Shown in pieces: positions 9,981-54,170 of a DNA stretch of 64,000 nt. Position numbers and translations under genes: made by a program. Each line of letters starts with the position of its first letter. The first letter of the stretch is position 1. Location of the stretch: positions 856-64,855 of the forward strand of contig CAVYMT010000004.1 in the NCBI GenBank assembly GCA_963769655.1, in the 5' to 3' direction. The notes under the pieces are model-generated. The model was given only the letters and a program-made list of their open reading frames with translations, was not told the origin of the DNA and ran no database searches. The DNA is from an uncultured Rubrobacteraceae bacterium. Its GTDB lineage: Bacteria > Actinomycetota > Rubrobacteria > Rubrobacterales > Rubrobacteraceae.

Positions 9981-10248
9981 AACACAAAGCAACTCCTATG
10001 CAACAGCAAGTATGTGCCACCTGGGGGATGTTCCGTCTGTTGCGAGGGTACTACGGTGTCTGATTATACAAGCGGGCAGAGGCTTGGAACCGCGTCTCGG
10101 TGAAGGTGGGTACCCCGTGGGGCGCGGGGAGCCAGTGGTGCAACCGGCTGTGCCGCGCGAACTAGGAGGAGGTCGCGCTTGTGAGGCGCCCTATCTTGCT
10201 GGTTACGCTGGCTTTGGTGATGGCGAAGATGCTGAGAGGAGAGAAGAA

Positions 10249-34606: not shown

Positions 34607-34682
34607 CCCTTCTCCAAGATTCTCTGAGGGTAGAGCACGCGTCGGTGGCCTGTCCTCACCCACCGGCCCATTTCCCCTAGGG
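34607..34682 (-). promoter_or_regulatory. conserved 76-nt leader element, long-form copy B (between the LuxR stop and the PLD start)
   Basis: The reverse complement aligns without gaps to 48524..48599 with 65/76 identities (hand count). Confidence 0.5.
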
Positions 34683-34704
34683 GGATTTGCGCGCTTCCGG
34701 AGGG

Positions 34705-37868: not shown

Positions 37869-38046
37869 CCGTAGGCCCTCCCCGAATCTGCTGGTTGCGG
37901 CTCTAACGAGTCACATTGTGCCCGAGGGTCACGTCCTGCACCGGGCCACCGGTCGCGGCACGCCGGTCGCCGAGCGTTCGCCAGCGACCTCCGGTGTCGC
38001 AAGAGTGACCTACGGGCTGGTATGGGGCACACGGTCCCGACCTAGG

Positions 38047-38679
38047 CTATCCGGCGAGGATGATGACGACGAACACGAGGTAGACGATGATGTTCACCGC
38101 CCAGCTGTTGTTGTTCATCCAGTCGCGCACCTTCGGCATGAAGTTCCGCGCGTGTCTCCGGAACAGTAGGTAGAACAAGATCGGGAGCGCCGCGACCAGC
38201 ACGGTGGCCGCTATGAACGGCAGCGCGGCCAGTACGGAGGAGCCGTGATGCTCGAGGTTTATTCCGACCGTCAGCATGATGATTATGTCGGAGGGCATCA
38301 GCAGGATCACCAGCAGCCCGGTCTTGAAGGCCAGCGAGGGGCCGGCTTGCTGGAGCCTACCCAGCCACGCTGGAGGCTCGATCGTCTCGCGCCTCACCCA
38401 GTTCTTGATGGCCAGGGCGATCAGTAGGATGACCAGGGCGTACTGGATCAGGTTGCCGATCGAAAAGGCGTCGGAGGGGTCGCCTAGTGGGATGCTGATC
38501 CCGAACAGGGAGGCGACGAACCGCATGATTATGACACCCACGGTGGCGGCGATCGCCACGCCGGCCACGAAAGCCAGGGATATCCTGACCGGCTTGGGGG
38601 CGGTGACGAAGATGATGTCCGACATGATCTGCGGTCCCAACATCATGGTGATGGCCAGGGGGAGTACCGTCAGGTCCAT
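38047..38679 (-). CDS. GAP/Sap-family membrane protein (PF11139-like)
   Basis: 210 aa, about 6 TM helices. The N-terminus MDLTVLPLAITMMLGPQIMSDIIFV and overall architecture resemble GPL/sulfolipid-addressing proteins. Confidence 0.7.
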   Translation of the reverse strand: MDLTVLPLAITMMLGPQIMSDIIFVTAPKPVRISLAFVAGVAIAATVGVIIMRFVASLFGISIPLGDPSDAFSIGNLIQYALVILLIALAIKNWVRRETIEPPAWLGRLQQAGPSLAFKTGLLVILLMPSDIIIMLTVGINLEHHGSSVLAALPFIAATVLVAALPILFYLLFRRHARNFMPKVRDWMNNNSWAVNIIVYLVFVVIILAG

Positions 38680-38862
38680 AGTCTCCTCTCGATCTTCGGT
38701 TGCTCTACGCTAATTCTGAGGGTTCATAGGCGCCAAGTCCGTCCTTTGGCTGGCGGTGATCGAGCGGATAGCTTGGCGCGCTGCTGGCTGGCTCCTCAAT
38801 CGCTTTGTTTGATCCAGCCAATGGGTTTCTCCTGTTTCGTCGCTGGTCCTTGGCTATCAACC

Positions 38863-41250
38863 CTATTGCCGCGCTATCAATACCTTAGCGTACTGCTCGG
38901 GATCGACCAGGTGACCGTGGTCGTCTTCACCGACCTTGAGTTCGACCCAGTTGATCTCACCGGAGAACTCGCTGTTCTGCGCGTCGCACTCGGGAGCAAC
39001 CGCCGTCCCGGTCTCGTAGCCGATGTCGAGGCCCTCGTCCGCCGAAAAGACGAACGGCTGGGTCGCTTCGACGCGCCCCTCGCCGACCTTGTTGCCATCG
39101 TAGTAGAGCGATACGTCACCGCCCTTGCCCAGGCCGCCGCCGTCGTAGGCGAACTCGGCGCGTACCTGGTGCTTGCCGGGCGGCACGGGCTCGTGGGCTT
39201 CGGTCGTGAAGGTCCTGACCCCCAGCAGGTTGTAGGTGAACTTCGTTGTCCCGTCCTTGGCGTAGAGGCTCCAGCCGCCGATCGCGCCGCCCTGGGCGAT
39301 GATCGTCCCGCCCGCAGGTCTATTCCCGTTCCCCCTCTGCTCGGGCACGACGACCTCGGCCGTCACGGAGAAGGACTTGTTCTTCACGCTGAGGACGCTG
39401 TTCTCGGACAGGTGGCTCATACCGGGGTAGAAGACCTGGGCGTTGCCCCTGACTAGCTGCGGACGGCCGGCCAGGTCCGGGTTCAGGCGCTCGGCGGCCC
39501 GGTCGTCGAGCGGGATGACGTTGTACTTGGTCGCCTCGATCAAGAACAGGCGCTGCAGCTCGTGCAGCTTCTCGGGCATCTCCTTGGCGAGGTCGTGCGC
39601 CTGGCTGTAGTCCTTGCTCCCGTCGTAGAGCTCCCAGATGTCGTCGTCGAACGCGGGCAGCTCGACCGCGCCGAGCACCCAGGGTGTGCGGTGCTTGGTC
39701 ACGGCGCTCCAGCCCTGGAAGTAGACGCCGCGGTTGCCAAACATCTCGAAGTACTGCAGGTCGTGTCGCTCGGGTGCCTCGGCCGCGTCGAAACTGTAGA
39801 GCATGCTCGTGCCTTCGTAGGGGCTCTGCGTAACCCCGTTGACCATCGTCGGCTCGGGGATGCCGGCCACTTCGAGCACCGTGGGCGCGATGTCGATTAC
39901 GTGGGTGAACTGCTGCCGTACCTCGCCTTTGGCCTCGATGCCCTTGGGCCAGTGGACGATCGTGCCGTTGCGGGTGCCGCCCCAGTGAGAGGCGACCTGC
40001 TTCGTCCACCGGAAAGGCGTGTCCATCGCGTGCGCCCAGCCGACCGCGTAGTGGTTGTACGACTCCGGCCCGCCGAACTTGTCGAGGCGCTCCGCCATGA
40101 ACTCGGGTGTCTGGATCGCGCCCATCCCGTTGAAGTCGATCATCTCGTTGAACGAGCCCTGGAAGGAGCCCTCGGCGGAGGCGCCGTTGTCGCCGATCAT
40201 CAGGTAGATCAGGGTATCGTCGAGGGTCCCCAGCTCCTCGATCGCGTCGAGCAGCCGGCCGACATGATGATCGGTGTGCGAGAGGAAGGCGGCGTAGATC
40301 TCCATCTGGCGCTCGAGGACCGGCTTCGTCTCGGTCGGCATGTCGTCCCAGGCCGGGATCTCCGCATGCCGCTCCGTCAGCTCCGCGTCCGCCGGGATGA
40401 CGCCCATCTCCTTCTGCCTGGCGAAGGTGATCTTGCGCTGTTCGTCCCAGCCGTGCGCGAACTTGCCCCTGTACTTCTCGATCCACTCCTTCGACACGTG
40501 GTGCGGTGCGTGCGTCGCGCCGGGGGCGAAGTACATGAAGAACGGCTTGTCGGGCATCAGCGCCTCCTGGGAGCGCACCCAGTTGATCGCGTGATCGGCG
40601 AGGTCCTCGGTGAGGTGGTAGCCCTCCTCCGGGGTCTTGGGCGGCTCGACAGGCGTCGTGCCCTCGTAGAGCGACGGGTACCACTGGTTGTCCTCGCCGC
40701 CGATGAAGCCGTAGAAGTACTCGAACCCGGAACCGGTCGGCCACATGTCGAACGGCCCCATCGGGCTCGACTGCCACACGGGCACCTCGTGGCACTTGCC
40801 GAACTGCGACGTCGAGTAACCGTTCAGCGTGAGCGTCTGGGCGAGCGGGGCCTTTGTGTTCGGCCGCAGCGAGTTGTTGCCCGGGGCAGAGGTCGCGATC
40901 TCCGTGATGCCGCCCATGCAGACGGAGTGGTGGTTGCGGCCGGTGAGCAGAGCCGCCCGTGTAGGCGCGCACAGGGCCGTCGTGTGGAAGCGGTTGTAGC
41001 GGAGGCCCTGGTTCGCGAGCCTCTCGAAGTTCGGCGTCTCGCACGGCCCACCGAAGGCACTCGAGGCGCCGAAGCCCACGTCGTCGAGCAGGATTACAAG
41101 GACGTTAGGAGCACCACCGGGTGGCCGCACGGGCTCGATCGGCGGGTACCGGGTGTTCGGATCCTTCGCGTCGTAGGTCGTGAGGCCCGTGTGTGTCTGG
41201 TCGGGGATCGGCAGGATCGCCCGCTGCGCTTTGTCATGCTGGTTCATCAA
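38863..41250 (-). CDS. arylsulfatase (Cys-type, formylglycine-dependent)
   Basis: 795 aa with the sulfatase signature TTALCAPTRAALLTGRNHH (CxPxR) and the N-terminal metal-binding segment LLDDVGFG. Confidence 0.9.
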   Translation of the reverse strand: MMNQHDKAQRAILPIPDQTHTGLTTYDAKDPNTRYPPIEPVRPPGGAPNVLVILLDDVGFGASSAFGGPCETPNFERLANQGLRYNRFHTTALCAPTRAALLTGRNHHSVCMGGITEIATSAPGNNSLRPNTKAPLAQTLTLNGYSTSQFGKCHEVPVWQSSPMGPFDMWPTGSGFEYFYGFIGGEDNQWYPSLYEGTTPVEPPKTPEEGYHLTEDLADHAINWVRSQEALMPDKPFFMYFAPGATHAPHHVSKEWIEKYRGKFAHGWDEQRKITFARQKEMGVIPADAELTERHAEIPAWDDMPTETKPVLERQMEIYAAFLSHTDHHVGRLLDAIEELGTLDDTLIYLMIGDNGASAEGSFQGSFNEMIDFNGMGAIQTPEFMAERLDKFGGPESYNHYAVGWAHAMDTPFRWTKQVASHWGGTRNGTIVHWPKGIEAKGEVRQQFTHVIDIAPTVLEVAGIPEPTMVNGVTQSPYEGTSMLYSFDAAEAPERHDLQYFEMFGNRGVYFQGWSAVTKHRTPWVLGAVELPAFDDDIWELYDGSKDYSQAHDLAKEMPEKLHELQRLFLIEATKYNVIPLDDRAAERLNPDLAGRPQLVRGNAQVFYPGMSHLSENSVLSVKNKSFSVTAEVVVPEQRGNGNRPAGGTIIAQGGAIGGWSLYAKDGTTKFTYNLLGVRTFTTEAHEPVPPGKHQVRAEFAYDGGGLGKGGDVSLYYDGNKVGEGRVEATQPFVFSADEGLDIGYETGTAVAPECDAQNSEFSGEINWVELKVGEDDHGHLVDPEQYAKVLIARQ

Positions 41251-41285
41251 CTGCTACCTCCTTGAGGTTGCTTTTGCGCCACGGT

Positions 41286-42446
41286 TTACAGTTCGCTAGA
41301 CCGTGCCCCGGGAACAGGATCGTCCGGAGCAGGAGTATCGGGAGCAGGGACCTCGGGGGCGCTGCTGTCCGGAGCGCCGATACCCATGAGGCTCGCGAGC
41401 CAGCGCGTCTCTGGGAACGTTCCGAGCATCAACACCACGAAGATCGTGAGGGGCGCCGCTAGGAACGCGCCCGGGCCGCCAAGCACAAAAGCCCAGAAGA
41501 TAAACCCTATAAAGAGGACCGTCGGAGAGAGGCTGAGCCCCCGGCCCATCAGCATCGGCGACACGAGGTTCTCGGCCAGGACGTTGATCACTATGACCCC
41601 CGCGATGACCAGCAATGCTTGCTCCACACCGGATTCCGCCAGGGCCAGAACTACCGCCGGCGCCACCGCCAACGGCAGGCCGATCCAGGGTATGAAGCTC
41701 AGGAAGAAGGTCAAAACACCCCACATGATCGCGAAGTCCACCCCAAGGACCAGCAGCAAGACGACCACGCCCGCGCCCGTGAAGAGGTTGACCAGGGCGC
41801 GCAACCCGAGCTGGCGCACGACGTTGCGGCCGAAGACGGTCAGCCGCTCGACCTGCGGATGGTCCTCGGCCACGCTGGCGCGCAGCCTGTTCATCATGGC
41901 GGGCCCCTCTGCCAGCAAGAACATCACGATGATCAAGATGAGGAACAGGTTGCTCAGGACGCCGGCGACGCCGCCCAGGACGGTGCCGACGGCCCCGATG
42001 AGGTCGCTGGGTTTGACGGCGTCGCTCAGATTAACGTCCGAAAGCCCCAGACGCTTGACTAGGGCATCGATGTTGTCAAACTGCCCGTTCAGCTTCCCTG
42101 TGTAGGATGCAATATCCGCGCTGAACCTGCTGATCGAGACGCTCAAGATGAAAAACAACCCCACGAAGAGGACGGTCAGCCCCACCAGCATGATCACGAG
42201 GGCTAGCGGGGTGGGGACCCCGCGCCGCTTTATCCAGGAGTAGACCGGGCTGAACAGGAGGCTCAGGACCAACGCGAAGAAGATGGGGTTGAGGATCGAC
42301 GCGGCCAGGCGCATCCCGACCAGCACGACCACGGTCGCGGCGAGGACGAGCATCACCCGCAAGAAGGAGGGTTGGCCCAGTGCGGTGGTCACGGCCGAAC
42401 CGAGGCTGGTCCTGTCACTTGCCGGGTTGTTGGGGGATTCGTTCAC
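41286..42446 (-). CDS. AI-2E family transporter (PerM/UPF0118)
   Basis: Multi-TM protein with typical AI-2E architecture. GTG 42446 follows GGAGG; the ORF track extends to TTG 42503. Confidence 0.85.
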   Translation of the reverse strand: MNESPNNPASDRTSLGSAVTTALGQPSFLRVMLVLAATVVVLVGMRLAASILNPIFFALVLSLLFSPVYSWIKRRGVPTPLALVIMLVGLTVLFVGLFFILSVSISRFSADIASYTGKLNGQFDNIDALVKRLGLSDVNLSDAVKPSDLIGAVGTVLGGVAGVLSNLFLILIIVMFLLAEGPAMMNRLRASVAEDHPQVERLTVFGRNVVRQLGLRALVNLFTGAGVVVLLLVLGVDFAIMWGVLTFFLSFIPWIGLPLAVAPAVVLALAESGVEQALLVIAGVIVINVLAENLVSPMLMGRGLSLSPTVLFIGFIFWAFVLGGPGAFLAAPLTIFVVLMLGTFPETRWLASLMGIGAPDSSAPEVPAPDTPAPDDPVPGARSSEL

Positions 42447-42521
42447 GATCCAGCCTCCGAGTTGGGCCTGGCTCTGGTGCTCTCCAAATCCCTTACCCTC
42501 CAACCGCCTACCACGGCTACC

Positions 42522-43769
42522 TCAGTCAGATGCAGTAGGCGGCGATGCCGACGCGACGGCGGGCTCGTTGGCCTCCCGGCTGGTTCGCCGGTAAGCCAGC
42601 ACCTCGGTGACTACTATCCGGATGATCTCGGCCACCGGGATGGCGAGCAACGCGCCGACGATGCCGAGCAGCTGCGCGCCTATCATAAGGGCGATCAGGA
42701 TCGCAAGCCCGTTGAGCTGGACGGCTTTGCTGTAGACCACCGGTTGGAGGACGTTGCTCTCCACCTGCTGATAGATCAGGACGAAGACGAGCAACACCAA
42801 AGCCTTCCAGGGTTCGACGAACAGGCCCACGACGACGAGCACCGCCCCACCGATGGTCGCGCCGACCAGCGGTACGAGGTCCAGCAAAGCAACCAGCAGC
42901 GCCAGCGGGGCAGCGTAGGGCATGCCAAGGACCAACAGCACGATGAAGGTGGTGACACCGCAGATCAAGCTGACGGCGAGGTTGCCTGAGACGTAGCCGC
43001 TGATCGCCCCCCCCGACTGGGTGAGCAGGCGCCGCACGAGCGGCTGGTGGGTATCCGAGAAGAGTCCTACCCCGGCGTTGAGATACCGTTCGCTGCCCAG
43101 GAGCAGGAAGAAGGTGAGCGTCAGAATGGTCAACAGAGAGACGACGGCTCCGGCAATGCTAGAGAATATAGCCCCGCTGGACGCGAAGAGGTTCCTTAGC
43201 AGGTCCGCCAGCTGGGTCCTGACATTGTCGAGTTGGTCGCTAAACTGCTTGAACAGCCCACCGAGCCCGTTCTGCTCGGCGAGTCCCTTGATGTATGCGG
43301 TCGGTCCTTCGGGAGCCTTGGCAGCAGAGGCAATGAAGTTGGTAAGGCCCTGGATCTGATCCACCAGCACGGGTATGAAGATCCCCACAACAAAAAGCAT
43401 CGCCACTAGCAGCCCGATATAGGTGAGCAGAATACAGAGGCTGCGCTTCATCAGCCTGTGGCGGCGCTGGAGCCAGTTGACCAGCGGGTTGAGCACCGCC
43501 GCCATAAAGAGGGCGATGACGAACCAGCCGATGAAGGTGCGCACCTGCCAGAGGAGGAAGAGCGCGCCCAGCACCAACGCTGCGGTGAGTAAGGCAACGG
43601 CGACCGTGCGCATCACTTGCGAAGTCGAGGCGCGTACCCACGCTGCATCCTGGCTGGGCGTTGACGTGCTTGGCTCCGCAAGCTCCGTAGAAACGGTCGG
43701 AGGTTGTGCCTGGGATTTTTCCTGGGGTTCTGCCTGCGAGTCCCTCTGTGTGCCTTTTACTTCGTCCAT
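42522..43769 (-). CDS. AI-2E family transporter (paralog)
   Basis: 415 aa with the same architecture: ...LDLVPLVGATIGGAVLVVVGL...LQPVVYSKAVQLNGLAILIAL... Confidence 0.85.
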   Translation of the reverse strand: MDEVKGTQRDSQAEPQEKSQAQPPTVSTELAEPSTSTPSQDAAWVRASTSQVMRTVAVALLTAALVLGALFLLWQVRTFIGWFVIALFMAAVLNPLVNWLQRRHRLMKRSLCILLTYIGLLVAMLFVVGIFIPVLVDQIQGLTNFIASAAKAPEGPTAYIKGLAEQNGLGGLFKQFSDQLDNVRTQLADLLRNLFASSGAIFSSIAGAVVSLLTILTLTFFLLLGSERYLNAGVGLFSDTHQPLVRRLLTQSGGAISGYVSGNLAVSLICGVTTFIVLLVLGMPYAAPLALLVALLDLVPLVGATIGGAVLVVVGLFVEPWKALVLLVFVLIYQQVESNVLQPVVYSKAVQLNGLAILIALMIGAQLLGIVGALLAIPVAEIIRIVVTEVLAYRRTSREANEPAVASASPPTASD

Positions 43770-43927
43770 ATCTGTAGCTCCTACTGTTCTCTAGGGTGCG
43801 ACTCTTCAGCCGCGCCGAGTCGATTGGCAATCGAAGTCCCCATGTACCGGGCTCCTTCCATCTCGCTATCTCATTGGGTCTCCTCCGCTACTTTGGCAGA
43901 GCCCAAGCGGGTCGGCAGCCATACCGC

Positions 43928-45148
43928 TCATTGCTTCTCCGGCGCGTCCGCGGCCATCCCCTGAACACGGTGGGCGTACGCGGCCGAGAGCGGGGCGGCC
44001 GTGACCCCGTGCAAGAGCACGCTAAGGAGCACGGTCAGGGCCACCACAGACACGATCTGCCCGCGCCCTTCAAGCAAGGGAGCCTCCGATACCACGACTA
44101 GGCCAAGCACGATCGAGGCGAGCCCCCGCGGACCGAACCAGCCCGCGAACAGCACCGAGACGCCGCGCAGGTGCGCTCCGACCAGGCTAACCGCGACCGG
44201 GAGCATGCGGATCACGGTCAAACTCAAGATGGCATAAAGGACTACCTCCCAGCTCATGGGTTGGACCAGGCCGATCACGAACACCCCGAAGATGAAGAAC
44301 ACGCTCAGGTTGAGAAGCTGCCCTTCGGCCTCGGTGAAGCTCATGAGTCGCTCTCCAACCCGCTTTACGGCCGGCCCGATCGCCAGGCCGCCGACAAAGG
44401 CAGCGATGAAGCCGTTGCCCCCTATCTGGTCTGCCAGCGTGTAGGCGACCAGCGCTAGCGCCAGGAAGGCGAGTCGCTGGAAGGATCCTGTCATCCACTC
44501 CCGCTGCGAGGCCCGGCTCATCAACCAGCCTCCCGCCAGACCGATGCCCACGCCGACCAGAACCCCAAACCCTATCTGCTCCAGGGAGAAGCGTATCCAG
44601 AAGCTCGCGGGATCCAGTTCCTCTCCGGCCACCGCCAGGGCCAAGAAGAGGGTCAAGAAGGGCACCGAAAGGCCGTCGTTGAGTCCGGCCTCGACGTTCA
44701 GGGCCTGGCGCAAGCGGGCCGGGACGCGAGGGTTGCTCACCACCGCCTCGCCCAGCGCAGCGTCTGTTGGGGCAAGGACCGTGCCCACGATGGCGGCCTC
44801 CCAGAAGGACAGGTCGGTGAGCAGCAGCGCCGCGGCAACGGTACCCAGAGCGATCGTGAGCGGCATCCCGATGCCGAGGAGGCGCAGGGGCAATCCCTCG
44901 TTTCTTTGAAGGGACGAGAAGTTGATCCCCGCGGCAACGGTGAACAGCACGAGTGCCAGGGCGATCTCGCCCAGCAAGAGCACGCGGTGGTCGTCGAGCC
45001 CGAACTCGACCAGGCCGAGCCCGTGGGGGCCGAGGACGATACCCGCCGCGACGAACGCTATCGGCGCCGTGAGAATGGTCCCCTCCAGCCGGCGCGAGAC
45101 GAGGCCGAAGGCGAAGACGACGCCGGCTAGCACGGCGAGATCAACCAC
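43928..45148 (-). CDS. cation:proton antiporter (CPA1, Na+/H+ exchanger type)
   Basis: 406 aa, 11-12 TM helices, with segments such as APTDAALGEAVV and LNDGLSVPF typical of Na_H_Exchanger proteins. Confidence 0.9.
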   Translation of the reverse strand: MVDLAVLAGVVFAFGLVSRRLEGTILTAPIAFVAAGIVLGPHGLGLVEFGLDDHRVLLLGEIALALVLFTVAAGINFSSLQRNEGLPLRLLGIGMPLTIALGTVAAALLLTDLSFWEAAIVGTVLAPTDAALGEAVVSNPRVPARLRQALNVEAGLNDGLSVPFLTLFLALAVAGEELDPASFWIRFSLEQIGFGVLVGVGIGLAGGWLMSRASQREWMTGSFQRLAFLALALVAYTLADQIGGNGFIAAFVGGLAIGPAVKRVGERLMSFTEAEGQLLNLSVFFIFGVFVIGLVQPMSWEVVLYAILSLTVIRMLPVAVSLVGAHLRGVSVLFAGWFGPRGLASIVLGLVVVSEAPLLEGRGQIVSVVALTVLLSVLLHGVTAAPLSAAYAHRVQGMAADAPEKQ

Positions 45149-45303
45149 CGTGGGCTCCGGGAGCGCACTGAACTCCCGACTTGCGGGAGCCAGGAAGGAG
45201 CGTCTCTCTCCCTAACTGATTTCCGCGCGCGTATGATAGTGGCGGTTGGCGGAGGGGTTCGGCAAGCTTATTCATCGAGGATCTTTGACGGCCAGCCATT
45301 CTC

Positions 45304-45956
45304 CTATCCACCGTAGAGGCTCCTCAGAAGGAAGAAAGCTCCGAATACGAAGCAAAGAACGGCCGTGATCGCGCGATTGTTCTTGTCCATCCAGGCTCGC
45401 AAGGAGCCGAGGATTCGCGAGGCCCGCTGGGGCACGGCGCGTAGAGGCCGATGAGGTCCAGAATCGGGACGGCAAAGATGAGGAGCACTATCCCGAGCGC
45501 CACGACGTTGCCTTGAGGGTTGAGGCTCCCCACGGCGATCAGGTCGATGCACGCCACGAAGATGGGGAGGTTCTTGATCTGGATCGGAAAGAGCGCCGTG
45601 CCCAGCCCGAAGGCCCTGGCAGGCGACATGGAGCTCACCGACTTCGTCCACCTCGGCTGTTGAACGTCGGGATCCGGCGCGCGGAGCAGGGTCCTGACAC
45701 CAAAGAGGAGGAGCAGCGCGCCGATCGACGCGCCGAGCACGCGGCCGACAGTGGAGACGGCCTCCCCCGCTCCGCCGAAGAGCGTGAGACCCGCGATGCC
45801 TATCGCCGCGCAGGTGGTGAAGTAGCCGGGCGCGAGTGCCGTTGCGTTGGGTAGGGGTCTGCTGGAGCCTAGGAGCAATATTGTGAGGAGCAGGATAGGC
45901 GGCGCGATCGAGCCGCCGACCGCCAGGGGTACGAGCCCTGGGAGCAGATCGCTCAC
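45304..45956 (-). pseudogene. GAP/Sap-family membrane protein, frameshifted near 45440
   Basis: VSDLLPGLVPLAVGGSIAPPILLLTILLLGS... parallels the N-terminus of 38047..38679. The C-terminus RASRILGSLRAWMDKNNRAITAVLCFVFGAFFLLRSLYGG* lies in another frame. Confidence 0.6.
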
Positions 45957-46204
45957 GGAGTTTCTGCTCGCCACAGCCTCGACCAGGCGGGTGCGGATAG
46001 TTAACGCTGAGGGTGAGCGCAGCGGGGAAAGGGTGGCTACGGACAGTGGATATCCTCGCCAAGGTAGTTCCCTGTAGTTGGGAGTGCCTACCATGACCGC
46101 CCAGAGTCCGTTTATCCATTCGCTGCCGTCACTCCACGGTGTCGTTTTTCGCCTTGGGGCGCCCGCAAGTAGCACGCCCCAAAGCGATTCGGTCCACGTT
46201 AGTG

Positions 46205-46699
46205 TTACTCCGTGTGCGCGAAAGCTTCGCGTAATTGCTTCTCCTGCTCCTCCGGCAGGTTCGTCGAGATGATCTCGAAGTCGTAGGCTTTGAGCTCGTC
46301 TACCACCTTATCTACCGCCGTTGCCCCGCTGGTCAGCGCGAACAGGGCCGATGTGCCCTCCGTCACTTTATCGCGCACTTGCTTGATGAAGTCGTCGCTT
46401 ATGCCCACGTCGGCCAGGGCGCCCGACATGCCGCCCATGCCTGCGCCTATCGCCGCGCCGAGGAAGGGCACGAAGAAGATCAGCCCGAACAGGAAACCCC
46501 AGAAGGCGCCCCAACCCGCGCCCGCGCCGGCCATGCTGTGTAGCTGGTGGGTCGACGGCTTCTTGTTGCCCTGGGGCCAGCTGACGACCGCGGCGTCCTC
46601 CAGGGTGATCAGCTCCCTCTCCTGCATTCCCTGCAGGGCCACCATGACCCGGTCTGCTCCGTAAGGGTCGCTGAACTTCAGTACCGATAGCGTCGCCAC
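46205..46699 (-). CDS. DUF1269 domain membrane protein
   Basis: VATLSVLKFSDPYGADRV...LEDAAVVSW...GAFWGFLFGLIFFVPFLGAAIGAGMGGMSGALADVGISDDFIKQV...SALFAL matches the DUF1269 pattern. GTG 46699 follows AGAGGAGGA. Confidence 0.85.
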   Translation of the reverse strand: MATLSVLKFSDPYGADRVMVALQGMQERELITLEDAAVVSWPQGNKKPSTHQLHSMAGAGAGWGAFWGFLFGLIFFVPFLGAAIGAGMGGMSGALADVGISDDFIKQVRDKVTEGTSALFALTSGATAVDKVVDELKAYDFEIISTNLPEEQEKQLREAFAHTE

Positions 46700-47010
46700 T
46701 TGCGTCCTCCTCTGTGTTGGCGTGTGTGGATCGCGATGCCTGCTTCGAGGAACGATCGGGGGGAGACCTGCCCCCGACCTCACACCCTTGATGGATGCGG
46801 ACCCCGGCCACCAAAGTCGCCCCTGATCCTTCAGAGCTCCAGCCTTTCTCAAGGTGGGACCGGATGGTGATTCTTACGCGGATTGTCGAGCCTCCTGTCG
46901 GGTTGCTCGGTTGCTTGCTCATCCGCTGGGCCTCGAGAACCGAGCCTCTTGACAAGACCGATCAAGCCGACGAAGTGCCATGCTCATCCGAGCCCGGCAC
47001 CGGAAGGTGC

Positions 47011-47466
47011 TCAGGCGCTCTCGAGTTGGTCGGAGTACCTGGCGAGCGCGTAGATGACCATCACACAAAGCGCGATGACCACCACCGCTAGGACCGGCGC
47101 GGCCGGGATGACAAAGAGCCACCTGATGGCGGCCACGATGGCAAAGAGGTAGCCCATCGTCCGACCGAAGCTCCCTCCTCTCAGGAGGTCTATGCCCGCG
47201 TACAGCGCGATTAGCGCGACGATCAAGTCGACGATGCCCCAGAAAACGAAGTTCGCGTACACCAGGTTCCCCGCTTCGGTCACCCACCAGCCGGTGCCCG
47301 TGAACGCAAGAAGCGCGCTCAAGGCCTCCAAGCCAGCAACCACGAACATTAGGACCGCGGCGAAGGTGACCATGCCGGGCCTGTGCGTTACTGCCCTGGC
47401 CTCGACCGGATCCTCCGTACGATCGCCGATTCCTCCCGGGACCGGATCTCTGTGTTGTTCCGCCAT
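47011..47466 (-). CDS. DUF7144-like membrane protein
   Basis: 151 aa, 4 TM helices: FAAVLMFVVAGLEALSAL...FWGIVDLIVALIALYAGIDLLRG...RTMGYLFAIVAAIRWLFVIP... Confidence 0.6.
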   Translation of the reverse strand: MAEQHRDPVPGGIGDRTEDPVEARAVTHRPGMVTFAAVLMFVVAGLEALSALLAFTGTGWWVTEAGNLVYANFVFWGIVDLIVALIALYAGIDLLRGGSFGRTMGYLFAIVAAIRWLFVIPAAPVLAVVVIALCVMVIYALARYSDQLESA

Positions 47467-47502
47467 TTTCGCTCCCCTTTCACTTGCTGCAGCCTCTGGG
47501 GA

Positions 47503-47997
47503 CTACATCGCGTCGATCGTCTTCTCCATCTCCCTGGCGTCCGCCCTGACCTCCTTCTTCAGCTCCTTCTTGGCCCGGGCGGTCGCCTCATCGACCGCCC
47601 GCTCGATCGTCGCCTCGCCGACCACGATCAGGGCCGCCTCGCTCTCGTCGAGCATCTCGCCGATCTCCTTCAGGTCAGAGTTGGACATCCCGCCCCGGAG
47701 GTGTCCGATGAGCGCACCCGCTCCAGCCCCCGCCAGCCCGCTGACCAGGATCGAAGGAGGAAAGATGAGGCCGATCGCCGCACCGGCCGCCAGGCCGGCC
47801 CAGCCTCCGTGCTGGGTCGGCTTCTCGGTCTTGTCGACTACCTTGACCTTGCCGTTTTCGTTCTTGGTGATGACCGCGGCGTCGTAAGTGCCAACGACGT
47901 GCTCGCGGTGCAGCTCCTTGAGCGCCTTGAGGTCGGCCTTCGCGTCGTCAACGCTCTCGTACTCGCCCGCGTAGAGGAACATCGGGTTATCGCTCAC
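47503..47997 (-). CDS. DUF1269-like stress-type protein with a Gly-zipper membrane segment
   Basis: YESVDDAKADLKALKELHREHVVGTYDAAVITKNENGKVKV...GGWAGLAAGAAIGLIF...GLAGAGAGALIGHL...EAALIVVG. GTG start 47997. Confidence 0.75.
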   Translation of the reverse strand: MSDNPMFLYAGEYESVDDAKADLKALKELHREHVVGTYDAAVITKNENGKVKVVDKTEKPTQHGGWAGLAAGAAIGLIFPPSILVSGLAGAGAGALIGHLRGGMSNSDLKEIGEMLDESEAALIVVGEATIERAVDEATARAKKELKKEVRADAREMEKTIDAM

Positions 47998-48123
47998 TCA
48001 AGTCTTCCTTTCGCTGTGTTTTGTCTTGCCCTGACTTCGTGACCTTCTGGTGTTGCCCCGTGCCCCGAATCGATCCAGGCAGCTCTCCTTTTCTGGATTG
48101 CTCGTCTCTTCCCGTATGTCAAT

Positions 48124-48180
48124 CTACCCTCGCTCCAGCAGGGGTTCATCACCCGGCAGAAGGTTTCCCCTAGGGGAATT
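48124..48180 (-). promoter_or_regulatory. short-form copy C of the leader element, with the perfect palindrome TTCCCCTAGGGGAA
   Basis: The reverse complement AATTCCCCTAGGGGAAACCTTCTGCCGGGTGATGAACCCCTGCTGGAGCGAGGGTAG shares the CCTAGGGGAAA-N9-GGGTGA frame with copies A and B. Confidence 0.45.
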
Positions 48181-48445
48181 CTCGCCTGAAGGGCGCTCGT
48201 CCGGCCGAATCGACGGCCCACGTGCCTCGCGGGACCTCGGTACCTACCTTCACGGTCTCTACCCCCAGGCACCTTGGACTTCGACCGCGGTGTGAGGCGT
48301 CTGGTACGAACTCTTGACGCGGCGCTGGGATAGCTCTGCGGCGTGAAAACCGACAGCGCTCGAGACGCGTGGTCGACGGTCGAGGTCGCGATTATCGGAT
48401 CGGGGTGCCGGGAGGAACCAGATCCTGCTCGGTTACGGGACGAAT

Positions 48446-48465
48446 CCCCGACAGTACTCCGTCCC
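48446..48465 (+). promoter_or_regulatory. 20-nt box CCCCGACAGTACTCCGTCCC, shared with the gadB leader
   Basis: 18/20 identical to 50602..50621. Here it sits inside a GGGACG...CGTCCC inverted repeat. Confidence 0.35.
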
Positions 48466-48523
48466 GAGTAGGTGCAAGGGGCCAACGTTGGCACGCACGG
48501 TTTATCCGAAACGATCGCGAATA

Positions 48524-48599
48524 CCCTAGGGGAAATAGGTCGGTGGGTGAGGACAGACCGCCTCACCGTGCTCTACCCTCAGAGAACCTTGGAGAGCGG
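48524..48599 (+). promoter_or_regulatory. conserved 76-nt leader element, long-form copy A
   Basis: CCCTAGGGGAAATAGGTCGGTGGGTGAGGACAGACCGCCTCACCGTGCTCTACCCTCAGAGAACCTTGGAGAGCGG, directly upstream of the small-protein gene. Confidence 0.5.
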
Positions 48600-48645
48600 A
48601 AGGAAACAGCGGAGCAACAAGAGTACAGGGAAATGCTACCGGATA

Positions 48646-48879
48646 GTGGTGCGCGGCGAGCTTAGCGAGCGCTTCGCCGTGGCCTTCGAAGAGATGCGGA
48701 TGGAGGCGGGAGGCGGACAGACCGTCCTCGAAGGGGAGCTCGTCGACCAGACCTACCTCCACGGCGTCCTGGATCGCATAGGCGGATTGGGGCTCGAGTT
48801 GATGAGCGTGGAGTCCTTGCCCGCAGAGGACCAGGACGCCCACGGAATCGAGTCGCCCGTGGATCAGCAATCGGGCTGA
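48646..48879 (+). CDS. small conserved actinobacterial protein (YRIVVRGELSERF... family); start uncertain
   Basis: (Y)RIVVRGELSERFAVAFEEMRMEAGGGQTVLEGELVDQTYLHGVLDRIGGLGLELMSVESL matches a widespread ~80-aa hypothetical family. There is no in-frame ATG; candidate starts are GTG 48646 or TTG 48589. Confidence 0.6.
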   Translation: MVRGELSERFAVAFEEMRMEAGGGQTVLEGELVDQTYLHGVLDRIGGLGLELMSVESLPAEDQDAHGIESPVDQQSG

Positions 48880-48988
48880 TGGAAACTTGCCAGAGCCTCT
48901 GGGGAATAGTGAGCAGCGATCGACGAAGATCAGGCAACGTTAGTAGTCAGGTGCGGGGCAGTGCGGGTCGAGATAGGAGGTATGGAGA

Positions 48989-49282
48989 ATGGGTTGCTTG
49001 CTCGCCATGTTTGCGGGTCTCTTTCCGAGGCTCGCGCTGCTCGTCCTATGGATCGCTCGGCCGGCGATCGTCGGCGCCGCGTTCGGCACGTTCCTCCTGC
49101 CGTTGCTGGGCTTCATCTTCCTTCCCTTCACGACCCTGATCTACGTGCTCGTGTACACGCCCGGCGTCGGGGTGGTCGGGTTGGAGTGGGTCTGGGTCAT
49201 CATCGCCTTGCTCCTGGACGTCGGGCACTGGGGGGCCGGCTACACCCAGCGGGACCAGTTCCCCGGGACGCGCGGCGCGTGA
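48989..49282 (+). CDS. hypothetical small membrane protein
   Basis: GGAGG RBS; 97 aa with 3 hydrophobic helices. Confidence 0.55.
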   Translation: MGCLLAMFAGLFPRLALLVLWIARPAIVGAAFGTFLLPLLGFIFLPFTTLIYVLVYTPGVGVVGLEWVWVIIALLLDVGHWGAGYTQRDQFPGTRGA

Positions 49283-49328
49283 ACGCCGGGCGCACGGCAC
49301 CAATGTGTCTGTAGAAGAGTCTTCCGGA

Positions 49329-49354
49329 GCGAGACCCCTTCTGTCGGGTCTCGC
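49329..49354 (+). terminator. stem-loop downstream of 48989..49282
   Basis: GCGAGACCC-cttctgtc-GGGTCTCGC is a perfect 9-bp stem, but no U-tract follows. Confidence 0.4.
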
Positions 49355-49514
49355 AGGACTCTGCGGCGGAGGCGAGAAGCAAGACCCGATCGCGCACTTC
49401 AGAGTGGGCGCAGGATAGGTGATACGGCGCCTGAGGAAGCGGGACGAATGGGGCCGCGCGGGACACCGAACCCGCGATTGAGGCTGACGGCGAACGAAGG
49501 TACGGAGGTGAACG

Positions 49515-50039
49515 ATGACGGAGAAGTTAGGACCGGTTCAGCTGCTGGCGATCGGCTTCGGCCCGGAGGCCGGTTTCGAGGGCAAGATCATGGACGAGCT
49601 CTCCAGGCTCGAGCGGCACGAGACGATCCGGATCCTGGACCTGCTGTTCGTGCACAAGGACGCCGAGACGGGCGATCTACTCGCCCTCGACTACCAGGGC
49701 GAAGAGCTCGGCGCCATCGTCGGCGCTTTGCTTGGCTTCGAGTTCGAGGGCGATGGGTCGGCCGAAACGCCGGAGGTAGAAGGCCACGCCTTCGGGCTCT
49801 CACAGCGGGAGATCGAGGACATGGCGGCCTCGCTCGAACCCGGCAGCTCGGCCGGATTCCTGCTCGTAGAGCACGTCTGGGCGCGAGAACTCAAGCGCGC
49901 GATCCGCGAGACGGGCGGCTACCCATTGGGAGAAGGTTTCCTCACGCCCGAGACCATCGCCGCCGTCGCAGCCGAGCTAGTCGCCATGGCCGAGGCCATC
50001 GAGGAGCTCGAGATCGAAGAAGCGAGCGCCGGAGCCTAG
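49515..50039 (+). CDS. DUF6325/DUF1269-like soluble protein
   Basis: LGPVQLLAIGFGPEAGFEGKIMDELSRLERHETIRILDLLFVHKDAETGD...LEPGSSAGFLLVEHVWARELKRAIRETGG. GGAGGTG RBS. Confidence 0.65.
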   Translation: MTEKLGPVQLLAIGFGPEAGFEGKIMDELSRLERHETIRILDLLFVHKDAETGDLLALDYQGEELGAIVGALLGFEFEGDGSAETPEVEGHAFGLSQREIEDMAASLEPGSSAGFLLVEHVWARELKRAIRETGGYPLGEGFLTPETIAAVAAELVAMAEAIEELEIEEASAGA

Positions 50040-50121
50040 GGGAGACCTGGAAGGACTCGAATCGGCGGAGCGAAAGGAGAACGGGACGTGGGACTCATCG
50101 CAGCAGCGGGCCGGAGGCAGG

Positions 50122-50367
50122 ATGCAGGCGCGGCAGACCTACCGAACGATGTCGCGGATGCAGCGACGCCGCTCGTACATCGAGGACAAGGTCGGCGCGC
50201 GTCAGGACTTCAGCAGCCCGGAGCAGGCACAGGCCCCGGAGGCCGCCCCGGCCGCTGCCGAGCCGGAGTACATGGGAGAGCTGGAACGGCTCGCCCAGCT
50301 TCGGGACCAGGGCATCCTCAGCGACGAGGAGTTCGAGGCCAAGAAGAAGCAGATACTGGGGATCTGA
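50122..50367 (+). CDS. SHOCT-domain protein
   Basis: The C-terminal EYMGELERLAQLRDQGILSDEEFEAKKKQILGI is a SHOCT motif. A GTG at 50088 with a better RBS lies in another frame (see findings). Confidence 0.7.
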   Translation: MQARQTYRTMSRMQRRRSYIEDKVGARQDFSSPEQAQAPEAAPAAAEPEYMGELERLAQLRDQGILSDEEFEAKKKQILGI

Positions 50368-50601
50368 AGACCTGTAATGGTGCCATGTCCTGCGCGAACG
50401 CCCTGGCCGGCGATGTGGATCTCGTCGACACTGCCTAGCCGGGGCAATCGGGTGTCGGGATCCGGGCTGGGGGCTTCTCGCGTCCAGAACCTGCCCATCG
50501 AGCTCGGTACGGTGCGCGGAGCGCCGACGCTGCAAGAGTGTGCCCCAGAAAGCCGACATGGTTAGCGGATTCGCGTCCCTGGCGCGATTCTCTCGAGTTG
50601 A

Positions 50602-50621
50602 CCCCAACAGTACTGCGTCCC
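50602..50621 (+). promoter_or_regulatory. 20-nt box CCCCAACAGTACTGCGTCCC in the gadB leader
   Basis: 18/20 identical to 48446..48465. GCGTCCCTG occurs twice in this leader (50573 and 50615). Confidence 0.35.
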
Positions 50622-50655
50622 TGATCGCGCCCGGAGGCAGGAAAGGAGAACGGCG

Positions 50656-52053
50656 ATGACGCTGCACACAAGGATCAGCGGCGAGGGGCCCGAGGAACAA
50701 AACCTCTCGGTCAATCCCCTCTTGGGCATCTACGGCGGGAGCACTGCCGTCCCCAAGCACCGCATTCCGGACGGTCCGATGCCGCCCGAGACGGCCTACG
50801 AGGTCATCCACGACGAGCTCATGCTCGACGGCAACGCCCGCCTGAACCTGGCCACCTTCGTGACGACGTGGATGGAGCCCCAGGCCGAGAGGCTGATGGC
50901 CGAGTGCTCCGACAAGAACATGATCGACAAGGACGAGTACCCGCAGACCGCCGAGCTGGAGATGCGCTGCGTGAACATGCTGAGCCGCCTGTGGAACTCG
51001 CCCGACACCGATTCGGCGACGGGCTGCTCGACCACCGGCTCCAGCGAGGCCGCCATGCTGGGAGGGATGGCCCTCAAGCGTCGTTGGCAGCACAGGAGGC
51101 GTGAGGCCGGAGAGAGCACCGACCGGCCGAACATGGTGATGGGCATAAACGTGCAGGTCTGCTGGGAGAAGTTCTGCAACTACTTCGAGGTCGAGCCCCG
51201 CTACGTGCCCATGGAAGGGAACCGCTTCCACCTCAACGGCGAGGAGGCGGCGAAACACTGCGACGAGAACACCATCGGCGTCGTGGCGATCCTCGGCTCG
51301 ACCTTCGACGGTTCTTACGAGCCGGTGCAGGAGATCTCCGATGCCCTCGACGACCTGCAGCAGCGCACCGGCCTCGACGTCCCGGTCCACGTGGACGGGG
51401 CGTCGGGGGCCATGGTCGCGCCCTTCCTGGACCCGGACCTGGTGTGGGATTTCCGCCTGCCGCGCGTGGCGTCGATCAACACCTCGGGCCACAAGTACGG
51501 CCGGGTGTACCCGGGCGTCGGCTGGGCGATCTGGCGCGACCCTGAGGCCCTGCCCGAGGACCTCGTCTTCCGGGTGAACTACCTCGGGGGGGACATGCCG
51601 ACGTTCGCGCTGAACTTCTCGCGCCCGGGCTCGCAGGTCGTGGCGCAATACTACAACTTCCTCAGGTTGGGCTTCGAGGGCTACCGGCGCGTTCAGCAGG
51701 AGTGCCGGGACATCGCGACCTTGGGATCTGCCGCCATCGCGGAGCTCGGCCCCTTCGAGCTCATTACCGACGGCTCCGAGCTCCCTGTCTTCGCCTTCAA
51801 GGTTCGTGACGAGGTGGACAATTTCTCGGCCTACGACGTCTCCAGCGGTATGCGCGAGCGCGGCTGGCAGGTTCCCGCGTACTCGTTCCCCAAGAATCGG
51901 GAAGACCTGGTCGCGCTGAGGGTGGTGGTCAGGAACGGCTACAACAGGGATCCGGCCGACATTTTCCTGGACGACCTGAAGCGGTTGGTGGCGCGCCTGG
52001 AGAAGCAGCCGGCCCCGGCGCACGACGAATCCGAGGCGGGCTTCTCCCACTGA
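50656..52053 (+). CDS. gadB: glutamate decarboxylase (PLP-dependent)
   Basis: 465 aa with NTSGHKYGRVYPGVGW (PLP lysine) and N-terminal IPDGPMPPETAYEVIHDELMLDGNARLNLATFVTTWMEP; colinear with bacterial GadA/GadB. Confidence 0.92.
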   Translation: MTLHTRISGEGPEEQNLSVNPLLGIYGGSTAVPKHRIPDGPMPPETAYEVIHDELMLDGNARLNLATFVTTWMEPQAERLMAECSDKNMIDKDEYPQTAELEMRCVNMLSRLWNSPDTDSATGCSTTGSSEAAMLGGMALKRRWQHRRREAGESTDRPNMVMGINVQVCWEKFCNYFEVEPRYVPMEGNRFHLNGEEAAKHCDENTIGVVAILGSTFDGSYEPVQEISDALDDLQQRTGLDVPVHVDGASGAMVAPFLDPDLVWDFRLPRVASINTSGHKYGRVYPGVGWAIWRDPEALPEDLVFRVNYLGGDMPTFALNFSRPGSQVVAQYYNFLRLGFEGYRRVQQECRDIATLGSAAIAELGPFELITDGSELPVFAFKVRDEVDNFSAYDVSSGMRERGWQVPAYSFPKNREDLVALRVVVRNGYNRDPADIFLDDLKRLVARLEKQPAPAHDESEAGFSH

Positions 52054-52074
52054 TGTTCACGATCCTCGAGAACG

Positions 52075-52114
52075 AACGCTTCGGGAATGACTGCTGACAG
52101 CGGTCCGAAGCGTT
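52075..52114 (+). other. 10-bp stem-loop with a 20-nt loop between gadB and the antiporter gene
   Basis: AACGCTTCGG-N20-CCGAAGCGTT, 22 nt after the gadB stop. Confidence 0.4.
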
Positions 52115-52328
52115 GCGGGGAATCCCGAGAGGTGGGAGTATCGAGAGCGATGGAGGCCCGCGGTCATCTCCTGGAATTCCTGTGGCCGGGAGGGACCGAC
52201 CCGACCGGACCGGGTGGTAAGGCGGTGCTGGTGCAATCCTGCAACGTCGAGGAAGAGATGACGGTCTCCCGGCAGATCCTGACCGGCGACGGTCCCCGCC
52301 GTTCGTCAGCCATCGGGGCGGAAAATGT

Positions 52329-54170
52329 GTGCCGACCATGACCACGGACCAGCTGCTCACAGGTCTCGGGCTCGTGCTTGTGCTGGCGATTGCCTGCCAG
52401 CTGGTGGCGGCCCGCACGCGGGTTCCGGCGATCGTGCTGCTGCTGCCCGTGGGCTTCGTCGCGGGCGCCGCCACCGACGTCGTGCATCCCGACGTCCTGT
52501 TCGGGGACACCTTCCAGCCGCTCGTGTCCCTCGGCGTCGGGCTGATACTCTTCGAGGCGGGCCTCAGGTTGCGGGTGTACGAGCTCGGCTCCGGCGTTCG
52601 TCGAGTCGTTGGGCGGCTGATCCTCATCGGCACGCCCGTAACGACGGCCGGCGTGATGGTGGCTGTCAAGGTCCTCTTCGGACTCGGATGGAGCGTGTCG
52701 CTCGTGATCGGCGCGATTCTCGTGGTGTCCGGGCCGACGGTGGTGTTGCCGCTGCTCGCCTTTGTCCGGCCCACGGACCGGGTGCGATCCGTCCTCAAGT
52801 GGGAGGGGACGCTGATCGACCCGGTCGGCGCGCTGTTGGGCGTGGTCGCGTTCCACGCCGTGCTGTCGGGCGCGGGCGGCGACGAGGTCTTCAGGCTCGG
52901 CGGGATGCTGCTCGGCCTGATCACGGGCTCCCTCGTCGGGGTGGGAGGGGCGGCGCTCCTCTGGCTCATGCTCGGCGGCTTTCAGCGCGCGGCGCCCAGG
53001 CAGGCGGTCTCCGCGGCGCTCATGGTCGTCGCCGGCGCGCTCGTCGCCGCCGATCTCCTGCAGGACGACGCGGGCTTCGTGGCCACGACCGTCATGGGCG
53101 TGATCCTGGCGAACCAGCGCAGGGTGGACGTCTCCGGCATCCTCGAGTTCCAGGGCACCGTGGTGAACCTCCTGATCGGGGTGCTCTTCGTCCTGATCTC
53201 CGCCTCCGTCGAGCCGTCCCAGGTCCTGGCCTTGCTGCCTGAGGGCCTCATCCTGGTAGCCGTGCTGGTGTTGGTCATCCGACCTGCGGTCGTGGCGCTC
53301 GGGACCTGGGGATCGGAGCTGGATCGCGCGGAGCGCGCGTTCGCGGCCTGGCTCGCGCCGAGGGGGATCGTGGCCGCCGCGACCGCGTCGGCGTTCGGCC
53401 TGCAACTGACCCAGGCCGGGGTGGCCGGGGCGGGGCGGATCCTGCCCGTCGTCTTTATCGTCATCTTCGGAACCGTGCTCCTCTACGGCCTCAGCGCCGC
53501 CCCGGTCGCGCGTCTCCTCGGGCTTGCGGGGGCGGGAGGCAGCGTGGTGCTCGTGGTAGGGGGCCACGGGTGGGCGCGGCAGATCGCGCAGGCCCTGGAG
53601 AGGGCGGGGCTCGGGGTGCGCCTGTGGACGGGCAGGACCGCCGAGCAGGTAGCCGCGCGCGAGGCGGGGCTCGCCGCGGACAACGCGCGCCTGGGTGGAG
53701 ACCTGGCGCGTCGCGAGGCCGAGCTGGAGGAGGTCGACGACGTTCTGCTCGTGACGGAGAGCGACGACTTCAACGCCCTCGCGGCCGGCGTGCTACGCCA
53801 GGAGCTGGGCAACGACCACGTGTACAGGCTTCCCGCCGCTTCGGATCTGCTGGATGCGGTGCCGGCCCACGCCGAGGGCGGGATCCTGTTCTCCGAGGAT
53901 CTGACCTTCCCGGAGTTGACCCGGCGCTTCGAGGGAGGGGCCCGGCTGGTGGAGCTTGCGGCGGACGACGTCCCGAACGACCCGTCGGCACATGACGACG
54001 GGATGCGGCCGCTGTTCGTCGTCACGGGCGCCGGCGAACTACGGGTCGTCACTATGGGGGCCCAACCTCCAGCGTCCCCCGCGGAGAAGACCATCTTCCT
54101 GGCGGGCGGGACGACGCGGGCAGACGGGCAGACCTCCGGGGTGGCAGACGCCTTGAACCTCGACCACTGA
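52329..54170 (+). CDS. CPA1 cation:proton antiporter with a C-terminal RCK/TrkA-like domain
   Basis: 613 aa: a 12-TM Na_H_Exchanger part, then VVLVVGGHGWARQIAQALERAGLGVRLW (Rossmann-like). The start is GTG 52329 or ATG 52338. Confidence 0.88.
   Translation: MPTMTTDQLLTGLGLVLVLAIACQLVAARTRVPAIVLLLPVGFVAGAATDVVHPDVLFGDTFQPLVSLGVGLILFEAGLRLRVYELGSGVRRVVGRLILIGTPVTTAGVMVAVKVLFGLGWSVSLVIGAILVVSGPTVVLPLLAFVRPTDRVRSVLKWEGTLIDPVGALLGVVAFHAVLSGAGGDEVFRLGGMLLGLITGSLVGVGGAALLWLMLGGFQRAAPRQAVSAALMVVAGALVAADLLQDDAGFVATTVMGVILANQRRVDVSGILEFQGTVVNLLIGVLFVLISASVEPSQVLALLPEGLILVAVLVLVIRPAVVALGTWGSELDRAERAFAAWLAPRGIVAAATASAFGLQLTQAGVAGAGRILPVVFIVIFGTVLLYGLSAAPVARLLGLAGAGGSVVLVVGGHGWARQIAQALERAGLGVRLWTGRTAEQVAAREAGLAADNARLGGDLARREAELEEVDDVLLVTESDDFNALAAGVLRQELGNDHVYRLPAASDLLDAVPAHAEGGILFSEDLTFPELTRRFEGGARLVELAADDVPNDPSAHDDGMRPLFVVTGAGELRVVTMGAQPPASPAEKTIFLAGGTTRADGQTSGVADALNLDH

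Follow-up and report, generated by a model that had tools for sequence, protein, structure and literature searches.

A conserved putative promoter module linked to a MalT-like LAL regulator in Rubrobacteraceae

Described LAL and LuxR-type operators and the Rubrobacteraceae locus

MalT multimerises on inducer and ATP, binds MalT boxes cooperatively and recruits RNA polymerase (PMC4381067), and the MalT box, GGGGA(T/G)GAGG, overlaps the -35 region in E. coli (PMC7567727). A MalT-like regulator of Actinoplanes sp. SE50/110 activates a 51-gene island through the motif TCATCC-N5-GGATGA, which ends 34.4 nt from mapped transcription starts (PMC7567727). The LuxR-type protein BldM, studied by ChIP-seq and DNase I footprinting, protects TCACcCgnncGgGTGA and has GGGTGA as its half-site (PMC4125116).

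The locus analysed here lies in a stretch of 64,000 nucleotides (the window) from an uncultured Rubrobacteraceae bacterium, which holds three copies, A, B and C, of one sequence element. Judging from sequence comparisons, copy C is probably the regulatory region of an activator-dependent promoter of a DUF1269-DUF7144-DUF1269 operon, for which a MalT-like LAL protein is the likeliest regulator. The minus strand of 48124-48180 matches the sequence quoted for copy C in the original prediction, including its perfect 14-bp palindrome TTCCCCTAGGGGAA at 48165-48178 (-), and GGGTGA (48149-48154, -) starts 10 nt past GGGGAA. The frame CCTAGGGGAAA-N9-GGGTGA, likewise predicted to be common to all three copies, was matched in copy A (34656-34681, -) and copy B (48525-48550, +). 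Copies C (-) and B (+) were also found as described, inside a divergent intergenic region of 650 bp and each facing its own gene; the distance between them is 345 bp. With up to one mismatch, CCTAGGGGAAA has 5 matches in the window against 0.61 expected, a number reached in none of 100 shuffles. The full pattern occurs at exactly three sites in the 4.68-Mb genome, all within the window (reversed control, 0; chance expectation about 0.01 by our own estimate from base composition).

The distal operator of copy C, TTCCCCTAGGGGAA (48165-48178, -), consists of two inverted TAGGGGAW half-sites with a central TA in common and has its predicted centre at about -58. The proximal box CGGGTGATGA (48146-48155, -; family consensus TGGGTGAWGA) is a third half-site, in direct orientation, with predicted position -42 to -33. 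It is followed by a -10 hexamer of the TAnnnT type, TAGATT (48121-48126, -), and the transcription start is predicted 6-8 nt past this hexamer, at 48113-48116 (-). Behind copy C stand, by Pfam assignment, a DUF1269/DUF6325-like gene (47503-47997, -), a DUF7144 gene (47011-47466, -) and a DUF1269 gene (46205-46657, -).

Copy B, which shares the intergenic region with copy C as its partner promoter, spans as a predicted whole module 48522-48579 (+), with an imperfect palindrome whose core is CCCTAGGG (48524-48531, +), the box TGGGTGAGGA (48544-48553, +) and the -10 hexamer TACCCT (48574-48579, +). It heads the gene for a small protein of the YRIVVRGEL family (here YRIVV) and the genes that come after. 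Copy A (whole module 34627-34685, -) has the palindrome TCCCCCTAGGGGA (34673-34685, -), the same box TGGGTGAGGA (34653-34662, -) and the same -10 hexamer TACCCT (34627-34632, -). It begins about 20 nt past the stop codon of the LAL gene and heads a PLD/cardiolipin-synthase-like gene at 32896-34419. Elsewhere in the window, CCTAGGGGAGA at 50035-50045 (+) overlaps the stop codon of a DUF6325-like gene, 77 nt ahead of a SHOCT gene; no GGGTGA box stands at the proper distance from it, and it could represent a partial site reduced to the palindrome, or simply match by chance.

The candidate regulator, a MalT-like LAL protein (34705-37015, -; Pfam AAA_22, AAA_16, TPR_MalT and GerE), combines a STAND/AAA ATPase with a MalT-type TPR region and a LuxR/GerE helix-turn-helix. 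The NCBIfam MalT model matches it with 224.5 and 114.6 bits, under the cutoff of 537, over model positions 3-280 and 310-642. The gene is split over two frames by one indel near 36040, at GGCC. This frameshift (36020-36080, -) falls at ...GAGGGCTCCGGCCAAGCTGCTG..., where relatives have EGSAKLLRELA; with equal likelihood, it is a long-read assembly error or shows that the sole orthologue of this genome is a genuine pseudogene.

The locus resembles the MalT promoters of E. coli and Klebsiella in the domain plan of the regulator (STAND ATPase, TPR/SUPR, LuxR helix-turn-helix), with homology over the full length, in the presence of several half-sites, in a proximal box that is predicted here to overlap the -35 position and to end near -34, and in a poor -35. 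Unlike in MalT promoters, the core is GTGAWGA or GGGGAW and not GGA(T/G)GA, only GA(T/G)GA being in common, and the distal half-sites are arranged as a tight inverted repeat, predicted at about -58, whereas those of MalT are direct repeats. The regulon here is of the membrane and stress kind rather than for maltodextrin, and the regulator scores far under the MalT equivalog cutoff. By analogy, the module would work like a MalT-type promoter, yet without MalT boxes in the strict sense.

Similarity to the Actinoplanes regulon lies in an actinobacterial LAL activator (here a candidate one) inside an island of poorly annotated membrane and enzyme genes, in a motif that overlaps, here by prediction, the -35 of many island promoters, and in the patchy occurrence of island and motif among relatives. 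The two differ in half-site sequence and in architecture: a single 17-bp palindrome covers the -35 in Actinoplanes, whereas here a single half-site would take this position and the palindrome stands 17 bp upstream. With its tight palindrome and lone box at the predicted -35 position, the module would add a third architecture to the small number of LAL/MalT operators described so far. The BldM Group I box has a half-site, (c/t)GGGTGA, identical to the proximal box, and BldM carries a LuxR/FixJ-type helix-turn-helix; however, it is a response regulator rather than a LAL protein, and it binds a 16-bp palindrome built from two GGGTGA halves. For such a box (TCACCC-N4-GGGTGA), TCACCC is absent 4 nt upstream, and a single GGGTGA is combined here with the GGGGAA palindrome. 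Compared with classical LuxR-type 7-2-7 or 6-4-6 sites, the 14-bp palindrome is tighter, with abutting half-sites.

Fixed geometry and promoter classes

Ten sites from three genomes align without gaps as AAWTCCCCTAGGGGAAA, nine variable nucleotides, TGGGTGAWGA, about 20 nt and TAnnnT. Counted from the C of CCTAGG, TAnnnT lies at +48 or +49 in 39 of 41 strict sites (+49 in 33, +48 in 6). In the set of 67 relaxed, non-redundant sites it is found 22-23 nt past GGTGA at 59; among the eight exceptions, one is a chance match and five come from non-Rubrobacter lineages, four of these five (three near-identical) having GAGCNT at the TAnnnT offset. Positions outside the search pattern are conserved as well: those of the left palindrome arm are kept in 65-66 of the 67 homologous sites, and the T, G and A of the proximal box in 60, 66 and 57 of 67, respectively. 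The palindrome conserved in the family is the 12-bp TCCCCTAGGGGA, with 16-bp forms where one palindrome serves two divergent promoters, and the 14-bp perfection of copy C is within the normal variation of the family. At two loci, L028 (G085:C209, ~1365-1410) and L019 (G089:C272, ~7867-7913), a single 16-bp palindrome, TTTCCCCTAGGGGAAA, has TCACCCA-N9 to its one side and, symmetrically, N9-TGGGTGA to its other; divergent YRIVV and DUF1269 operons are both served by it, and no LAL gene lies between them.

Each promoter holds three half-sites of the form TRGGKGAW, two of them inverted (TAGGGGAW) and one direct (TGGGTGAW), 17 bp downstream. The numbering adopted here takes the -10 element as positions -12 to -7, and all promoter coordinates rest on the TAnnnT hexamer. 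With the start position deduced from this hexamer, the palindrome would be centred at about -58 and (T/C)GGGTGAWGA would occupy about -42 to -33. The box TGGGTGAWGA ends 20-21 nt ahead of TAnnnT, i.e. at about -33 if the start lies 7 nt past the -10 element, and GGGTGA itself is placed at about -41 to -36 because TAnnnT sits 22-23 nt further downstream. At a spacing of 17 or 18 nt, just the WGA of the box occupies the place of the -35 hexamer. A search for a sigma-70 consensus promoter across 47950-48700 found none.

Copy C had been described as a short form that lacks the central ~25 nt of copies A and B. This does not hold: the three copies are colinear, with GGGTGA at an equal offset in each and TAnnnT at +48 in copy C (TAGATT) and at +49 in A and B (TACCCT). 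An internal deletion was considered and rejected; MAFFT had put in a 12-nt gap, and gap-free alignment of 10 to 67 sites keeps the -10 spacing. The segment between box and -10 element falls into conserved promoter classes, namely type B (...GAAGACGAACCATCCTGCCGTGCACTACGCT...), which heads YRIVV operons, type C (...GATGAAAGCCTTCCTGCAACGAGAGTAGATTGCCATAC...), which heads DUF1269/DUF7144 operons, and a third class (GGGGATAYG...), which heads operons of the order smallTM-DUF6325-like-SHOCT. Positions 48091-48187 of the window share 75% identity with the type-C region of genome G014, and 48521-48697 show 75% identity to the type-B region of that genome. Given the class structure and these identities, copy C has its orthologues in a promoter class of its own and is not a deleted A or B. 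Copies A, B and C can be treated as one system, and copy C needs no explanation of its own.

The gene order DUF1269-DUF7144-DUF1269 recurs behind type-C sites in relatives. Type-C leaders (48060-48095, -, in the window; L005, L009, L028 and L037 elsewhere) also have a conserved block, (G)TGCAGGAAAGGAGAG...GATCG(A/G)TTGAG, about 40 nt past the predicted start; this block could be a leader element, or else the ribosome-binding site of an alternative start further upstream.

Distribution, linkage to the LAL gene and genes served

Searches of 104 Rubrobacteraceae genomes with the strict pattern gave 45 matches in 17 genomes and 3 of 17 genera, with none for the reversed control; the relaxed pattern gave 75 matches, spread over 18 genomes and 4 genera, where the control gave 7. 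A wider scan with a 19-base strict version, covering one genome for each of 185,579 species, returned 38 stretches, 34 of which belong to Rubrobacter, Rubrobacteraceae or other Actinomycetota assemblies and one to Cellulomonas soli, where the site is beside a LAL gene. Matches in Oscillospiraceae, Bdellovibrionales and Streptomyces look like chance, as probably is the one in Kribbella. On these counts, the motif is essentially confined to Rubrobacteraceae and two other actinobacterial lineages.

Orthologues of the LAL protein (at least 51% identity, ~760 aa) are present in 19 of the 104 family genomes and form a group clearly apart from generic LAL paralogues (~30-35% identity). When occurrence of the relaxed motif and of the LAL orthologue is compared across the family, both are present in 16 genomes, only the LAL gene in 3, only the motif in 2, and neither in 83. 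The three genomes with LAL only are fragmentary assemblies, in which absence of the motif was judged under the patterns used, and one of the two with the motif only has an N-terminal LAL fragment beside the site, at a contig end. Corresponding numbers for the largest genus are 11, 2, 2 and 18, so that motif and LAL gene make up an accessory pair, acquired or lost jointly. Being related, these genomes are not independent samples, and the co-occurrence counts are therefore descriptive, given without a statistical test.

At 35 of the 67 sites, the next gene upstream is the LAL gene. In 18 of these 35 cases, site and gene point the same way, with 10-150 nt from the LAL stop codon to the site, and in the other 17 the gene is divergent, with its start 240-590 nt away. 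No regulator gene other than LAL recurs next to the 67 sites. The sole LAL orthologue of the genome under study stands ahead of copy A, and tblastn found no LAL gene or remnant between C and B; in relatives, a LAL gene separates the orthologous promoters. The same association extends to other lineages: in Cellulomonas soli, which belongs to a different order, two sites flank a YRIVV-LAL operon, in which the YRIVV gene immediately precedes the LAL gene. A further Actinomycetota assembly has the motif ahead of DUF1269-like genes, with a LAL gene on the same stretch as one copy. LAL homologues from other families, at 38-42% identity, have no CCCCTAGGGG nearby, which indicates that the motif is specific to the LAL orthologue group. 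Near two LAL paralogues at 52-53% identity, the motif was not found within 1.5 kb.

Paralogous LAL genes carry matched variants of both boxes, for example CCCCTAGGTGAAA-N9-TAGGTGATGA, and this joint variation suggests that a single protein reads both. Variant sites flank paralogous LAL genes at L085 (G014:C7, ~572975) and at L087 (G006:C8, ~1139277 and 1141923), with the forms TAGGTGAAA...TAGGTGATGA and TAGGGGAGA...TAGGTGA. Such variants are suggestive of regulator-operator co-divergence after duplication.

The view that the genes served look like a stress regulon gains support, a coherent set of membrane and stress genes recurring behind the motif in many genomes. At 59 of the 67 sites, the first co-oriented gene belongs to a family that is also found in the island of the window: YRIVV at 20 sites, short DUF1269 at 15, a small membrane protein at 7, DUF7144 at 5, DUF308/HdeD-type at 4, the long form of DUF1269 at 3, a sulfatase at 2, and PLD, AI-2E and DUF6325-like at one site each. 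Genes that often come next in these operons encode GAP/SfLAP, glutamate decarboxylase (TIGR01788, 647 bits) and cardiolipin-synthase-like PLD proteins. A regulator-operator pair is proposed in this way for a number of common, uncharacterised actinobacterial membrane proteins (DUF1269, DUF7144, DUF308, GAP/SfLAP and SHOCT), and the same pairing would tie these proteins to glutamate decarboxylase and a cardiolipin-synthase-like enzyme, pointing to acid or envelope stress. The island in the window (37302-54170) contains glutamate decarboxylase, a DUF308/HdeD-type protein, two Na+/H+ exchangers, a sulfatase, AI-2E transporters and a LuxR-family regulator, and loosely recalls the acid fitness island of E. 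coli.

The YRIVV protein (48589-48879, +) is always encoded by the first gene after a LAL-linked type-B promoter. It has no Pfam or NCBIfam family. Its structural model, a confident one (pLDDT 78.7), shows a ferredoxin-like beta-alpha-beta-beta-alpha-beta fold, for which the best PDB match is not significant (E = 0.035). As the sole other conserved partner that is not an enzyme, it was considered as a DNA binder and rejected, the model having no DNA-binding motif. The ATG of the relatives is missing in this genome, and the only possible starts are TTG at 48589 or GTG at 48646/48649.

Proposed mechanism and alternative readings

Combining the geometry with the linkage, we propose that polymerase carrying the housekeeping sigma factor acts at the TAnnnT -10 element (TAGATT in copy C) in the absence of a usable -35 hexamer, with the box (T/C)GGGTGAWGA standing in its place. 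A LuxR-type helix-turn-helix protein would occupy the three half-sites as an oligomer and recruit polymerase. The likeliest binder is the MalT-like LAL/STAND regulator, the companion of the motif in nearly all carrier genomes, and its control would put copies A, B and C with their operons under one signal. Since the gene content comprises glutamate decarboxylase, HdeD-type DUF308, PLD, Na+/H+ antiporters and small membrane proteins, this signal may be acid, osmotic or envelope stress.

A broader picture, possible but in our opinion doubtful, is that the LAL gene and two outward-facing promoters, one past its stop codon and one divergent upstream, make up a portable cassette that has spread among Actinomycetota, where it would cover Rubrobacterales, Micrococcales and a further lineage. 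In soil relatives of Rubrobacter, the cassette would control an acid or envelope-stress island (glutamate decarboxylase, HdeD-type protein, PLD, antiporters, DUF1269/DUF7144), a functional analogue of the GadE-controlled acid fitness island of E. coli. The ferredoxin-like YRIVV protein might then be a co-sensor or modulator of the STAND regulator.

The alternative that survives best, although we regard it as unlikely, keeps the promoter and its factor site and assigns the site to another protein encoded elsewhere, either a different LuxR/NarL-type regulator or a CsoR/RcnR-type repressor, a kind of protein that reads G-tract palindromes. Binding by LAL is proposed from linkage and the LAL gene is frameshifted in this genome, while BldM-like response regulators read GGGTGA; nevertheless, LAL alone recurs as the adjoining regulator gene (35 of 67 sites). 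As for CsoR, its Streptomyces type 2 operators (ATATACCCCTNAGGGGTATAT; PMC3902906), the only systems that a literature search for the palindrome found, share the core CCCCTAGGGG. However, CsoR needs TAC/GTA flanks, in place of which the sites described here have ATC or TTC...GAA, and the "T swap" to TTC...GAA abolished CsoR binding (PMC3902906). Copper or other metal genes follow none of the sites. Furthermore, the palindrome would lie upstream of the promoter, at about -58, whereas repressor sites usually cover the core promoter.

It is very unlikely that the element acts post-transcriptionally as a structured RNA, either in a leader or, at sites behind the LAL stop codon, in the 3' untranslated part of that mRNA. 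Many copies do start 10-60 nt past the LAL stop codon on the same strand, and they fold somewhat better than mononucleotide shuffles (-18.2 versus -15.4 kcal/mol). Complementarity between the two spacers is marginal (-5.94 versus -5.53 kcal/mol; 7 of 200 permutations), and relatedness of the sites can account for it. The original prediction had preferred a dimeric DNA-binding protein to an RNA stem, and this preference is supported: no copy has an Rfam match, and RNAalifold, run on all sites, per promoter class and on both strands, gave no consensus fold beyond a weak one (-5.8 kcal/mol) over invariant columns, convincing covariation being absent. What is conserved are sequence blocks rather than stems, the palindrome has no loop, and at two loci a single palindrome serves both strands. 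For a divergent copy such as C, there is no gene upstream from which transcription could reach it, and the fixed TAnnnT fits a function at the DNA level.

Least probable of all is the reading of GGGTGA as the -10 element of a SigB/SigF-class or other alternative sigma promoter with an accessory palindrome: GGGTGA resembles GGGTAT and the gene set is stress-like, but in terms of GTTT-N14-16-GGGTAY no GTTT-type -35 is present 14-16 nt upstream (the lack of a -35 at normal spacing, already remarked on when this resemblance was proposed, stands), upstream conservation is limited to one block at a distance of 10 nt, too near for any sigma-70-family -35/-10 pair, the box runs on as GGGTGAWGA, unlike GGGTAY, the motif tracks LAL and not a sigma factor gene, and the TAnnnT conserved downstream in 59 of 67 sites would have no role.

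As a separate observation on the window, positions 10069-10159 (+) match the Rfam c-di-GMP-II-GAG riboswitch aptamer (RF03169) with 41.7 bits, the gathering score being 40.
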